From the IMG/VR virus record IMGVR_UViG_2681813274_000011: DNA of 4,909 nucleotides; one strand, 5' to 3'. Origin of the DNA: a virus (Duplodnaviria > Heunggongvirae > Uroviricota > Caudoviricetes). Position numbers and translations under genes: made by a program. This document shows, piece by piece, positions 511 to 4,872 of the stretch. The notes under the pieces are model-generated. The model searched no databases. It saw nothing but the letters and a program-made list of their open reading frames with translations, and was not told where the DNA came from. Every line of letters starts with the position of its first letter. Position 1 is the first letter of the stretch.

Positions 511-2046
511 TCAGTGATAGTAGCCAGGACCACGCAGGTTTTCATGCTCTGAAGCATATGCCGGATGTTGTTCGCCCTGGCGGGATAACGGAAGCTCAAC
601 GTTATCCCGATGATGACGCAGCAGATTGTCGATAAAGCGTCTGTCCGGGGCGTTATAGTGCAGGGCAACGTAACAGGCCTTTTCCAGCCGTTCCGGGCCG
701 TATTTTTTCTGAAGTGCCAGCAGACCCAGGACTGCACGGTAAGCCAGCTCCGGATGGGGTTTGGCTTTCAGCATGGATTCAACCACCCGGCCTGTGGACG
801 GACCTGTACGGTTTCCCTGCTCGATAAGGCGTTCCGGTGTCCATGTCCCATGCCGCCGGTGGCGTTCTGGCATGTGAAGCGGATTGGTTGTGTGTTTATA
901 TTCATGTGTGCTGCGCGGATGTTGCGCCACACACTGCCCCTTGTGCCAGAGCTGTACCACCGACTGCCCCACCTTCAGTGACAGACGCTGACCGACCAGT
1001 TCGTGTGGAACGGAGTACCAGTGACGGGCATATTCAACGTGGTAGTCAGGGCCAACCTTCACGGCTTTGTATTCCGTGTATTCATAAGGCTCCAGAGGCA
1101 GCGGAGAGAGTGCTGGTGCATCCAGCATGCGGAAGCGTTCTGCGCGGGTTTGATTACCGTATCCCTTCATTGGTCGGTTATTCATGTCCGTCAGCAACTC
1201 CCGAAGGCGTGCATTCAGCGCCCTGAGCGTGTGGAAGGTTTCATTACGGATGCGGGCAAGAAGCCATCGCTCGACGATGAGGACGCCGTTTTCTGCTTTT
1301 GGTTTATCTTTAGGTTTGCGCGGGCGGGCCGGGATAATAACCGTGCCATAGTGCTCAGCCAGCGCCTGATAACTGTCGTTGATGACAGGCTCATAGCGAT
1401 CGGCTTTTTTCACTGCGCTTCTGAGGTTATCGGGGATGAGCAGCTTCGGTACGCCGCCCAGGAAGGTCAGGCAACGGCTGTGGGCATTTAACCATGACAT
1501 CATGTCCTGACCTTCGCACGCTTCAACATAGGTATAGTTGGACGCCCCCATTACAGCCACGAAGATTGCCACGCGGCGTATCTCTCCGGTGTCCGGATTA
1601 ATAACAGGGACCGTAGGACCACAGAAGTCGATAAAGAGCTTTTCGCCAGCACGATGCTCCTGTCGCATGGAGAGGCGTCGCGTTTTTTTCCACTTCCGGT
1701 AGCAACGGCAGAAGTGTGAGTATCCCATCGCTTTGTCACCCGCCTGTGCCTTGTATTCCATCCACAACAGTTGGCGCGTCACGCCAGGTTTTCTCATTTC
1801 CGTATCGAAGTACAGCATGTCAGGCATAACAAGCTCTGACGCAGAGGTGTCTTTGGGCGGGAAAATGAGTTTCTCCAGCGTGTCATGGGATATATCCGCA
1901 GGTAATGGCCATGACAGAGAAGAGGCTTTGAAGCGGGCAAGAACCTCAAAAACGGTTGAGGCGCTGATGTGTAACGTCAGTCCGATACAACGGTTAGTCA
2001 GCTTCTTATCGAACTTGAGCTGAAGGATCTTAAAACAAGTTTCCAT
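511..2046 (-). CDS. istA: IS21-family IstA transposase (HTH + DDE/rve catalytic domain), 511 aa from the preferred start
   Basis: The ORF track gives 511..2100 (529 aa). I prefer the in-frame ATG at 2046..2044 (METCFKILQLKF...) because it is preceded by AGGAG with a 4-nt spacer; the ATGs at 2100 and 2076 lack an obvious SD. DDE-type motifs read from the translation: FIDFCG, LLIPDN, and KPKDKPKAENG (K-x-K-x-E pattern typical of IS21 IstA). TGA stop at 513..511. Confidence 0.85.
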   Translation of the reverse strand: METCFKILQLKFDKKLTNRCIGLTLHISASTVFEVLARFKASSLSWPLPADISHDTLEKLIFPPKDTSASELVMPDMLYFDTEMRKPGVTRQLLWMEYKAQAGDKAMGYSHFCRCYRKWKKTRRLSMRQEHRAGEKLFIDFCGPTVPVINPDTGEIRRVAIFVAVMGASNYTYVEACEGQDMMSWLNAHSRCLTFLGGVPKLLIPDNLRSAVKKADRYEPVINDSYQALAEHYGTVIIPARPRKPKDKPKAENGVLIVERWLLARIRNETFHTLRALNARLRELLTDMNNRPMKGYGNQTRAERFRMLDAPALSPLPLEPYEYTEYKAVKVGPDYHVEYARHWYSVPHELVGQRLSLKVGQSVVQLWHKGQCVAQHPRSTHEYKHTTNPLHMPERHRRHGTWTPERLIEQGNRTGPSTGRVVESMLKAKPHPELAYRAVLGLLALQKKYGPERLEKACYVALHYNAPDRRFIDNLLRHHRDNVELPLSRQGEQHPAYASEHENLRGPGYYH

Positions 2047-2155
2047 AGTGCTCCTGGATTTTCTCTTTTTGGACATTGACGTCTCCACTGGTTTAAACAC
2101 GGCAATGGAGACTGTGGTGAAAAGAGTTAATTCCCGGAGTGACTGGCGAATTCCA

Positions 2156-2333: not shown

Positions 2334-2648
2334 CTAACAACCCGTAATCGAGTTATCAGAACTGTTAATTTTTATGGTATACCGCGCCTCTGAACAGGGG
2401 CGCGTTTCTGGCAACAGCTCGTCCCCTTCACATAACCCGGCAGCAACATCCAGGAAGACCTGTCTGATGCTCCTTCTGGCTGCTGCCTCATAAAACTCCA
2501 GCGCGGCACCTTCAACACGGTCCAGCGAGATGTCCAGGTCAAAAATTTCACCGTCAAAGCGTTTTTTGTCCCGTAACGCTAAAGTTACCGTAACTTTATT
2601 CTCAAAATTGCGGATCCCTTTCACAATCAGTTCATAGTTTTGAGTCAT
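2334..2648 (-). CDS. Small acidic cytoplasmic protein of unknown function, 104 aa; YdfR-like (DUF1327-type) by position and size, not verified by sequence
   Basis: ATG at 2648..2646 lies 4 nt after the holin stop (2655..2653), with GGGGAG upstream, suggesting translational coupling. No hydrophobic segment and many D/E residues. In E. coli K-12 cryptic prophage Qin, a ~103-aa gene (ydfR) sits between holin essQ and endolysin rrrQ (recalled synteny); this gene has the same position and size. TAG stop at 2336..2334. Confidence 0.6.
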   Translation of the reverse strand: MTQNYELIVKGIRNFENKVTVTLALRDKKRFDGEIFDLDISLDRVEGAALEFYEAAARRSIRQVFLDVAAGLCEGDELLPETRPCSEARYTIKINSSDNSITGC

Positions 2649-2652
2649 TGAA

Positions 2653-2868
2653 TTACTCTCCCCGTGCAGCCTTACGACGGTCCTCTCTGATTTTGAAATA
2701 CAGGTTAGTCAGATATGTCAGCAGCCCAAACAGCAGACTCCCCAGCACGCCTATTGCCGCCCACTGAGACGGGGAAACCCTGTCCAGCAACTGCAGGAAC
2801 CAGTAGCCCGTTCCCACCGCTGACGTGGTGTATGACACACCTGTTGTGATTTTTTCCATCTGGTACAT
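2653..2868 (-). CDS. S: Phage class II holin of the S21 pinholin type, 71 aa, with a second in-frame start giving 68 aa
   Basis: The track ORF (97 aa, 2653..2946) is over-extended. The start at ATG 2868..2866 (MYQMEK...) is preceded by GGGAGA, and a second in-frame Met at codon 4 (2859..2857) gives 71/68-aa products, the lengths of the phage 21 antiholin/holin pair. Two transmembrane segments: a weakly hydrophobic Gly/Ser/Thr-rich TMD1 ([24 protein letters not shown]-like) and TMD2 ([23 protein letters not shown]). Highly charged C-terminal tail [13 protein letters not shown]. Confidence 0.8.
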
Positions 2869-2903
2869 ACCCCGTCTCCCGTTATCCGGAAGCTGACAAC
2901 AAT

Positions 2904-2933
2904 AAAAAAAGCCACCAGTTAAGTACTGATGGC
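2904..2933 (-). terminator. Rho-independent (intrinsic) terminator between the esterase gene and the holin gene
   Basis: On the minus strand: 8-bp stem (gccaucag / cugguggc, one G-U wobble; plus 2926..2933 and 2911..2918), 7-nt loop, then a run of 7 U (plus-strand A-run 2904..2910). Lies 86 nt downstream of the esterase stop and 35 nt upstream of the holin start. Confidence 0.75.
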
Positions 2934-3018
2934 TCTGATAACTCATGCAGGCATCTCAGACGACCCACTGACACTACCGGTGAGTTTAACGATACCTTCC
3001 ATTTGGCTGGCTCACTTT

Positions 3019-4872
3019 TTATGATGATGCCGGTGCATTTATCTCCAGCACCAGACTTTCTATCTCAACGCCATACGCTGCATTTTTGGTAATATCCGTC
3101 AGCGTCAGCGCATTCAGCCCCAGTGTCAGACTGTCTTTTATGACCTGGAATGCCGGGCCAGCCACTCCATTCAGTTTCGGAGTAACCGTGGCACTGCCGG
3201 CGGTGAACACCAGCTCCAGCGTCAGCCAGTCGTTACTGTAATTCCCGAACTCGCCCAACTTTGTGTTTCCTGCTTTCTTGTGATGCATCAGATTCAGTTT
3301 GCCGTCTGTGGTCTGGGTGAAGAACGACATCAGGAACGGGTTACCAGTCCCGGTCATCGCCACGACGTCAGGTAACGCTACATCGGTATACAGATAAATT
3401 CCCAGACCGAACTGGTTGTTGGTCAGTGCGCCTGACAGTCGAAACTTACAGCTCAGTCTGCCACCCCGTGTCAGCAGGGAGACTGCGTCATCCACCGGGC
3501 GCGTCAGGGACCAGGCTTTATTGCTCTGCTTGGTGATCTTAAATACACCATCTGACAACTGAACTCCGCCATTCTTAATGCTCCAGCCCTGCGCAGCAGC
3601 GTCTCCGGCTGTCGGCAACAGGGAGATTGTGCGTATGGATGCATCTTCAGACGGCCCCGATGGCGTGTCGCCGCCGGGCGAGGGTTTGATTTCCGGTGCC
3701 TTACCACTAATGAAGGCTAAGGTGCGACCGGCTACGTTCAGAATAGCAGTTGCCATACGATCGGGAATAATGCCACGACGCGCCCATGAGCTGAAATGCG
3801 TCGGGCGATTTGATGATACCCAGTTTTTGTTCGTTCGGGATGCCGAACCGTAATAACCAGACCCGGCAATATCAGGATCTTCTGACGGGTTGTTTGTCGG
3901 TGTATTAACTCCGCTACCATCGGTCATAAAGGGAACAAAATAAATCTGCTGGGATTCTTTACCTTTATATGCACCATATACCACTTCATATTGCGTACCG
4001 TGTTCTTGTTTCCACGCGTATGTCGTGTCGCCACAAATCCAGGGGACTGATGCCGGACTTCCACCGTGACACTGCGCCGCCAGCCCGGCAAGGTCAGCAC
4101 GGAACTGCTGTACCATTGCAAGAAATGCTGCTGGCTGCTGGGCGTAACTGGCATTCGTCATATCGAATTCCCCCTGCATCCAGCATATCGCCAGCAAAAC
4201 GTTTTTCGGGTTTTTCTGCAATGCTGCCTTCGTGCGGAAAAGCAGATCCTGATATAACGGCTTACCCACTCCCCAGCGAGCCGAATCCTGACTGGCCCCC
4301 GTGGACTCGCTGAATGTCCCCTCCGTGCCCTGGGTGAATGCCGAACCACCACGACAGCATGGTACCAGCAGGATCCCCGCATTATTAGGGATATACGGAA
4401 GCAGTTTTTTGGCAATATGTAAGCCCTGTCCGACACAGCCGTACTGCCCTTTGCTCAGGTCAGCCCGGGGATGGTTAATCGTACTCATATCCTGAACATC
4501 ATGCAGACAATGGTCAGCAGGAATGATGTCGTTAAATACGCATACTTCACCACCGGGAGTCACTGTGTTACGACGGGCCAGTTGCTTAATGCGCGGATGG
4601 GGCGCATCGTATGAATCCGGAAGCGGAAGACCTTCACCGTAAGCCATGGCATTGGATTGCCCGGCCAGTACGATGACGTAGTACCACTCCGGCTCAGTTG
4701 CACCACTGACGACCACATCACCTTCTGCTGCAATCGCCTGCATCAGGGTATAAGGGGTTATGGCCACCGGACTACCAAACGGCTGCCAGCCCTCCTTCAG
4801 TTTTTGTGTCAGTCGTTTCGCAAGGTCTGACGGCGATGCCGCCCTGACCACGTCATAGTGTTTAAATGCCAT
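3019..4872 (-). CDS. nanS-p: Prophage-encoded sialate O-acetylesterase (NanS-p-like): N-terminal DUF1737-like region, SASA/DUF303 SGNH-type esterase domain, and a ~205-aa C-terminal domain of unknown function
   Basis: 617-aa ORF with ATG at 4872..4870 preceded by GGGAGG (4-nt spacer). SGNH/SASA motifs in the translation: GQSNA (aa 71-75, nucleophile Ser block), WMQGEFD (aa 231-237), THF (aa 358-360, candidate catalytic His). Pro/Ser/Gly-rich linker KPSPGGDTPSGPSEDAS (aa 396-412). Size and position immediately upstream of the holin match the nanS-p genes of lambdoid/Stx-type prophages of E. coli (recalled). Confidence 0.7.
   Translation of the reverse strand: MAFKHYDVVRAASPSDLAKRLTQKLKEGWQPFGSPVAITPYTLMQAIAAEGDVVVSGATEPEWYYVIVLAGQSNAMAYGEGLPLPDSYDAPHPRIKQLARRNTVTPGGEVCVFNDIIPADHCLHDVQDMSTINHPRADLSKGQYGCVGQGLHIAKKLLPYIPNNAGILLVPCCRGGSAFTQGTEGTFSESTGASQDSARWGVGKPLYQDLLFRTKAALQKNPKNVLLAICWMQGEFDMTNASYAQQPAAFLAMVQQFRADLAGLAAQCHGGSPASVPWICGDTTYAWKQEHGTQYEVVYGAYKGKESQQIYFVPFMTDGSGVNTPTNNPSEDPDIAGSGYYGSASRTNKNWVSSNRPTHFSSWARRGIIPDRMATAILNVAGRTLAFISGKAPEIKPSPGGDTPSGPSEDASIRTISLLPTAGDAAAQGWSIKNGGVQLSDGVFKITKQSNKAWSLTRPVDDAVSLLTRGGRLSCKFRLSGALTNNQFGLGIYLYTDVALPDVVAMTGTGNPFLMSFFTQTTDGKLNLMHHKKAGNTKLGEFGNYSNDWLTLELVFTAGSATVTPKLNGVAGPAFQVIKDSLTLGLNALTLTDITKNAAYGVEIESLVLEINAPASS

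Follow-up and report, generated by a model that had tools for sequence, protein, structure and literature searches.

A DUF6645 lectin-like domain at the C-terminus of a prophage NanS-p esterase, and its possible part in glycan binding

A 4,909-nucleotide stretch of viral DNA (IMG/VR record IMGVR_UViG_2681813274_000011; the whole stretch is referred to here as the window) contains a gene of the nanS-p type, encoding a 617-residue prophage sialate O-acetylesterase, and raises the question of what the last third of this protein contributes to an enzyme that appears to be complete without it. An original prediction made from the letters alone had proposed that the C-terminal ~205 residues form a separate domain that is joined by a Pro/Ser/Gly linker and plausibly binds carbohydrate or mucin. 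We show that the region folds as a unit of its own and is homologous to a domain that has already been crystallised, and we argue that it probably binds glycans. The parts of the gene on which this argument depends are as follows.

3019-4872, minus strand: nanS-p gene, 617-residue prophage sialate O-acetylesterase, stop codon at 3019-3021 (open reading frame listing and Pfam)
3688-4698, minus strand: NanS-like SASA/SGNH esterase, residues 59-395 (phmmer to PDB 3PT5 and Pfam SASA)
3637-3687, minus strand: Pro/Ser/Gly-rich interdomain linker KPSPGGDTPSGPSEDAS, residues 396-412 (allele alignment)
3022-3636, minus strand: C-terminal lectin-like jelly-roll domain, residues 413-617, DUF6645, 'CTR4'/phage 86 type

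A separately folding C-terminal domain of the DUF6645 family

Pfam recognises DUF1737 at residues 3-50, SASA at residues 66-262 and DUF6645 at residues 467-577 of the 617-residue protein, which also matches PHROG 3591 and PHROG 143 and has no NCBIfam model. The DUF6645 (PF20350) match has an E value of 4.7e-19 and scores 69 bits with the whole protein and 71.6 bits with residues 413-617, compared to a cut-off of 27, and no other Pfam family matches the C-terminal domain at E <= 1. PDB entry 6YP6 ('NanS-p', 218 residues) matches residues 421-613 with an E value of 8.2e-30, or 2.1e-81 when the family profile is used. This structure is of vb_24B_21/gp84 of phage phi24B (Franke et al. 2020, J Struct Biol 212:107596, as reported through PMC10462455 and PMC8065619), and the domain is described by those two sources, citing Franke et al. 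2020, as a lectin-like jelly roll and a proposed carbohydrate-binding module. From these matches we identify the window domain as the same module in the form of a divergent allele (~36% identity). It is thus already known, with both a Pfam entry and a crystal structure of the family in existence, and the carbohydrate or mucin targeting put forward in the original prediction is a hypothesis already present in the literature for the phi24B homologue.

The C-terminal regions of these proteins have been classed as CTR1 to CTR4, with phage 86 as the sole CTR4, and only the SASA domain was found to be homologous along its whole length in all sequences (PMC10462455). Our comparisons add one small point to that scheme (PMC10462455), namely that CTR4 and the crystallised CTR1 domain are homologues with a common fold. 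The window and phi24B domains are alike in lying C-terminal to a flexible linker on a DUF1737-SASA esterase, in the position of their genes, which lie between the region of the Q antiterminator and the holin gene, and in keeping three of the four aromatic residues proposed to contact sugar. They differ in type (phage 86/434 'CTR4' in the window, 933W/phi24B 'CTR1' in phi24B); the window domain is the shorter by ~13 residues, two of its loops carrying deletions, its linker lacks the SSP motif, and the closest relatives of the window copy, such as that in E. coli 042, are not next to stx.

The family-wide core residues Q428, W430, G470, G471, F477, Y493, W549 and Y600 are all present in the window domain, and two near-invariant positions are changed, relative to the phi24B domain among others: the His of the DNxWH motif is L550 (codon 3223-3225) and the Asp of the xDG motif is N568 (codon 3169-3171, both on the minus strand). 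Both positions are conserved in 13/14 family representatives, and the His position, Leu in the window, is Gln in the other window-type alleles. L550 and N568 were considered as ligand residues and rejected, since the WH and DG motifs are common to LamG/ConA-like sandwiches in general and are also aligned in the Vibrio domain discussed below; the two positions are probably structural motif sites.

The separability of the domain is indicated from several directions. Residues 59-379 match NanS (YjhS; PDB 3PT5) with an E value of 4.3e-122 by phmmer, and residue 379 corresponds to residue 332 of 337; the crystal chain ends at the equivalent of about residue 385, so that the esterase fold is complete without the C-terminal region. 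The SGNH-type motifs GQSN (Ser73) and RPTH (residues 356-359, with the catalytic His359) fall in invariant columns, and RPTH is the phage-86-type variant (PMC10462455). We predict that the enzyme is a NanS-type 9-O-acetyl-sialate esterase; the NanS-p family acts on Neu5,9Ac2 and mucin O-glycans, as shown for other alleles (PMC8065619, PMC5923452). Across residues 380-400 the identity to 933W-type and PhiR5_1-type alleles falls from ~60% to ~30%, the linker varies in length among alleles (with a ~22-residue insertion in PhiR5_1), and the crystallised phi24B construct begins at G423, which is aligned to A411 of the window protein.

AlphaFold2 modelling of residues 413-617 alone gives a confident all-beta sandwich of 16 strands and one short helix, with a predicted local distance difference test score (pLDDT) of 88.7 and a predicted template-modelling score (pTM) of 0.85. 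The domain folds the same way in a full-length model, in which residues 1-410 have pLDDT < 50, the alignment rows being C-terminal fragments. Two proteins carry the domain without an esterase. One of them, P0061, has 294 residues comprising DUF1737, a Gly/Ser linker and a divergent DUF6645, and is encoded (L006, 8001-8885, plus strand) in the slot that corresponds to that of nanS-p, between a Q/tRNA region and holin, lysozyme and Rz genes; complete E. coli genomes contain nothing of this gene beyond its first 163 nucleotides. The second, P0070, has two DUF1737 domains, DUF6645 and a further C-terminal extension of ~100 residues, and its genomic context was not found in viral or metagenome contigs.

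These data show that the C-terminal domain is a separately folding unit on a flexible Pro/Ser/Gly linker. That it is instead an integral part of the esterase fold is extremely improbable, given that the 337-residue NanS is a complete enzyme, that the homologous domain was crystallised by itself, that residues 413-617 fold confidently both alone and in the full-length run, and that the domain occurs in P0061 and P0070; the evidence for separability is indirect, but it answers the question in the negative. The structural claims of the original prediction have therefore held up well: residues 396-617 correspond exactly to nucleotides 3022-3687, residues 413-617 are rich in Leu (13.2%), Thr (10.2%) and Gly (10.2%) as stated, the suggested beta-sandwich is what was modelled, and the placing of the end of the esterase motifs at about residue 370 is roughly right, with RPTH just before that point and the NanS alignment stopping shortly after it.

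A second low-complexity stretch was also reported within the esterase region.

3856-3918, minus strand: conserved esterase segment GSGVNTPTNNPSEDPDIAGSG, residues 319-339 (alignment to NanS 3PT5)

The stretch exists and lies inside the esterase, where it is no linker: the alignment to NanS runs through it uninterrupted, and the pattern TNxPxEDPD...GYYGS shows little or no variation across five phage alleles, with T326, N327, P329, E331, D332, P333, D334, I335 and G339 conserved. Its reading as a second linker was rejected on this conservation, and the segment is therefore part of the esterase fold.

Alleles, distribution and selection

The esterase of the window protein is 95% identical to that of phage 86, 84% to that of phage 434, 69% to the 933W type and 67% to PhiR5_1, and the corresponding values for the C-terminal domain are 96%, 88%, 37% and 34%. 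The protein is therefore a mosaic in which the C-terminal domain is the most divergent module, and at least five or six C-terminal sequence types, less than 40% identical to each other, are found on the conserved esterase. The N-terminal domain has a different set of closest relatives.

4708-4872, minus strand: DUF1737 domain, residues 1-55 (Pfam PF08410, E 1.3e-15, residues 3-50)

Here the identity is 96% to PhiR5_1, 78% to 434, 66% to the 933W type and 64% to phage 86. The combination of a PhiR5_1/434-type DUF1737 with an esterase and C-terminal domain of the phage 86 type (95-96%) implies a recombination breakpoint at about residues 50-60.

The C-terminal domain is under purifying selection. 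The ratio of non-synonymous to synonymous substitution rates (dN/dS), taken at moderate divergence, is 0.27 in comparison with phage 434 and 0.22 with a divergent E. albertii allele; the esterase gives 0.15 in the phage 434 comparison. Among 16 window-type alleles, 36/60 positions are variable in residues 413-472, compared with 31 of ~145 elsewhere in the domain.

A tblastn search over phage records identified 40 with the window type at 87-96% identity, including phage 86, phage 434 and many Stx1a phages, and 308 with the 933W/phi24B type at ~35% identity. Among the 5426 complete E. coli genomes searched, 1391 carry the window-type DNA over at least 80% of its length. The family as a whole is small: when 1.84 billion cluster representatives were searched exhaustively with the profile, only 75 proteins matched at E <= 1e-3, 20 of them at E <= 1e-30. 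A scan of species-representative genomes found the domain in Escherichia sp. and E. albertii only, and word-indexed homologue searches yielded almost exclusively Escherichia fragments.

Two further arrangements were seen. A 705-residue protein (L092, 5875-7992, plus strand) has SASA, DUF6645 and an extra C-terminal domain of ~95 residues, with no DUF1737; it is preceded by a Macro-domain gene and a DUF4376/tail-fibre-assembly-like gene and followed by DUF1353, HtrL_YibB and large membrane-protein genes, and its subgroup has a YNGRRGDG..QGW motif ahead of the lectin-like domain. In the distant relative P0106, of 831 residues, a BNR-repeat sialidase is joined to a DUF6645-like domain that is only weakly recognised (E 1.3e-6 with the profile; 24.6 bits in Pfam, under the cut-off) and to that same C-terminal extension. 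The genomic source of P0106 was not found in viral contigs, where the sialidase part alone was matched, at 39%.

Probable glycan binding and its alternatives

Outside its own family, the nearest structural neighbour of the domain is the N-terminal domain of Vibrio cholerae NanH, and the beta-sandwich is close to the VcCBM40 fold. Because this neighbour is a proven sialic-acid-binding module, a glycan-binding role for the window domain gains support. The similarity was also sought at the level of profiles, by aligning a DUF6645 profile built from 14 diverse domains with the single Vibrio sequence (192/192 identical to 1KIT/1W0O) in hhalign. This gave a probability of 61.5% (E 7.8e-5, 16% identity over 158 columns) with the QGW, (W/Y)HxxEL and DG motifs in register, a similarity that is suggestive but not conclusive; no Vibrio CBM40 match was recovered at E <= 10 when the PDB was searched with the family profile using hmmsearch. 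The two domains (the Vibrio one represented by PDB 1W0O/1W0P/2W68) are alike in forming a non-catalytic wing on a sialic-acid-processing enzyme. They differ in that they are only 14-16% identical with no Pfam or PDB sequence match linking them, and that the partner is a SASA esterase in the window and a GH33 sialidase in Vibrio; a BNR sialidase is found only in the distant P0106. CBM40 modules occur exclusively with sialidases, and the Vibrio type is an outlier among them (PMC5736709). Membership of CBM40 was considered for the window domain and rejected, since despite the closeness of the folds neither the contact residues nor the partner enzyme correspond. With L-type/ConA-like domains (VIP36, ERGIC-53, Emp47p, peanut lectin and CBM2 of the phage J-1 Dit) there is no sequence similarity at a Pfam E <= 1.

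The sugar site proposed for vb_24B_21 comprises Y510, Y515, Y540 and F611, as presented in PMC10462455. The first three are retained in the window domain as F488, Y493 and F518, positions that are aromatic in most family members, Y493 being Tyr in 13 of 14 family representatives. We count these residues, together with the joining of P0106 to a BNR sialidase, in favour of sugar binding. A fold search of BFVD with residues 413-617 yielded no close viral model, and the better matches, at TM 0.61-0.63, include SGNH-hydrolase virion proteins of LIT1 and KPP21, two phages of Pseudomonas. Unrelated phages thus also combine a ConA-like domain with an esterase.

In the reading that we favour, as probable, the domain has no catalytic role and binds glycans through an aromatic/hydrophobic platform, and would so direct the esterase, and for a time the virion, to glycans that are sialylated or O-acetylated. 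Homology, fold, autonomy and purifying selection are observed; that a ligand is bound, what it is and how this is of benefit are inferred. The domain would bind a glycan, most likely one that is sialylated or O-acetylated and of the mucin type, mainly through the platform formed by F488, Y493 and F518 on one sheet face, and would thereby raise the local substrate concentration for the tethered esterase. On the phage head it could tether virions to mucus, and domain and esterase might then work like a receptor-binding plus receptor-destroying pair, with the different sequence types of the domain reflecting different ligand preferences. The haemagglutinin-esterase of influenza C, corona- and toroviruses provides a functional analogy, as it combines a virion-surface SGNH sialate O-acetylesterase with a jelly-roll lectin into such a pair for O-acetylated sialic acids. 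Unlike the window domain, its lectin is inserted within the esterase and not appended by a linker, and the two lectin parts have no detectable homology. A position on the virion is reported for gp84 of the Stx phage phi24B, a virion protein in which DUF1737 is the capsid-binding anchor; its hexamers decorate the capsid by plugging the hexon at the centre of every capsid face, and fresh particles still carry the C-terminal domain, which slow self-processing then removes (bioRxiv 10.64898/2026.04.10.717836). The Tyr 'tooth' of phi24B DUF1737 (Y42) has a counterpart, Y41, in the window protein.

Several observations weigh against this interpretation. The sialic-acid contacts of the Vibrio domain are Arg74, Arg118, Gln188, Gly196, Ser197 and Ser198 (PMC12355970), and these are not kept: in the hhalign alignment, the loop register of which is uncertain, Arg118 corresponds to L494 and Gln188 to L586, Arg74 falls in a two-residue deletion, and Gly196-Ser198 correspond to I594-T595-K596. 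The fourth residue of the proposed phi24B site, F611, has no aromatic counterpart, as it aligns, depending on the alignment used, to L584 or to an adjacent one-residue gap. The concanavalin-A-like fold is also present in non-lectins, including glucanases, lyases and toxin domains, and a review states that experimental evidence of binding is lacking for the domain (PMC8065619). The full-length AlphaFold2 model is uninformative for residues 1-410 and for which way the domain faces relative to the active site. Finally, the phi24B C-terminal domain is cleaved in storage and the cryo-electron microscopy map shows the N-terminal anchor only (bioRxiv 10.64898/2026.04.10.717836); display of the lectin-like domain on the virion may therefore not be lasting.

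Part of this evidence could be taken to mean that the domain binds no ligand and is a structural or regulatory appendage, such as an aid to the folding or solubility of the esterase, an element for spacing or oligomerisation in the capsid-bound hexamer, or the target of a self-processing event by which the enzyme leaves the virion. The removal of the phi24B domain by slow (auto)proteolysis after phage release and the absence of the Vibrio contact residues agree with such a role, and the divergence of the alleles could mean weak constraint, dN/dS against phage 434 being higher than in the esterase. However, this ratio remains far under 1, several aromatic positions of a surface type are conserved throughout the family, the existence of DUF1737-DUF6645 proteins without an esterase makes a mere esterase-helper role unlikely, and the window linker is without the SSP motif that is the proposed processing site in phi24B. 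We consider a non-binding appendage unlikely.

The ligand could also be of a different origin, with the domain binding a bacterial surface polysaccharide (O-acetylated O-antigen, polysialic acid capsule or colanic acid) and serving the phage rather than engaging host mucin; reversible first attachment, escape from debris or modification of the host surface would be its uses. The idea of O-antigen has been raised before (PMC8065619), and several features of the family speak for it: the domain is the most divergent part among alleles (34-37%, compared to 67-69% for the esterase), a conserved enzyme that comes with at least five or six sequence types of the domain shows a pattern typical of receptor-binding modules, variation among the 16 window-type alleles is concentrated in residues 413-472, the SASA-DUF6645 gene of L092 adjoins tail-fibre-assembly-like and lipopolysaccharide-modification-type genes, and the BFVD neighbours include the SGNH-esterase virion proteins of LIT1 and KPP21. 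The known activities of the enzyme family, on Neu5,9Ac2 and mucin O-glycans (PMC8065619, PMC5923452), point the other way, as do the location of the phi24B protein on capsid faces and not on the tail, and the sialidase-associated lectin domains that are its closest structural neighbours. No allele type is tied by data to any host serotype. We therefore regard a bacterial ligand as quite unlikely.

Beyond the favoured reading of a glycan-binding module that targets the esterase lies a more speculative one, which we think rather doubtful, namely that DUF6645 is an exchangeable specificity cassette carried on a conserved esterase or a DUF1737 anchor, with each type directed to another O-acetylated sialoglycan or polysaccharide. 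The ligand preference of the CTR4 type would then differ from that of 933W/phi24B because one aromatic residue is missing and two motif positions are changed. If so, the heads of temperate coliphages would carry a haemagglutinin-esterase-like device controlling where virions stick in mucus.

Gene neighbourhood and biological meaning

The nanS-p gene is 99.5% identical at the nucleotide level to one annotated as 'SASA family carbohydrate esterase' in an E. coli 042 prophage, and 95.8% identical to orf3 of Stx2 phage 86. Genes in the 042 prophage are arranged in the order Q antiterminator, methyltransferase, tRNAs, esterase, holin, YdfR, lysozyme, Rz and terminase, and no stx is present in this prophage around the esterase gene. 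In the window, the holin likewise lies directly downstream of nanS-p. The gene thus has the NanS-p domain architecture, DUF1737 - SASA - C-terminal domain, and the NanS-p position between Q and the lysis genes, the Q side being seen in the 042 prophage; as judged from sequence, its product is a NanS-p-type prophage sialate O-acetylesterase.

The mechanical call of the holin open reading frame (2653-2946, minus strand, 97 residues) is too long at its start, and RefSeq gives a 71-residue class II holin in the 042 prophage, corresponding to a start at M27 (nucleotide 2868) in the window. A terminator-like hairpin at 2908-2936 (minus strand), made up of a 12-bp stem and then a run of T, separates the esterase stop codon from this real holin start, and terminators are annotated 3' of the esterase gene in the phage 434 record as well. 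The next open reading frame, YdfR/DUF1327-like (2334-2648, minus strand), is interrupted by a scaffold gap. Positions 1-2155 are occupied by an IS21-like ISSso4 element, with istA at 511-2100 (minus strand) and the start of istB, which is 100% identical to copies elsewhere in E. coli. A run of 137 N (2156-2292) cuts the prophage off from ISSso4, and because it separates them the junction is a scaffold gap and not a real insertion site.

The practical result is one of annotation, in that the window domain is an ordinary, widespread member of a known and structurally solved family. Through NanS-p esterases, the O-acetylated sialic acids of mucin become a growth substrate for E. coli, enterohaemorrhagic strains among them. 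Should the C-terminal domain be a lectin, the glycans to which the enzyme, and possibly the virion, is targeted in the gut would depend on its sequence type.

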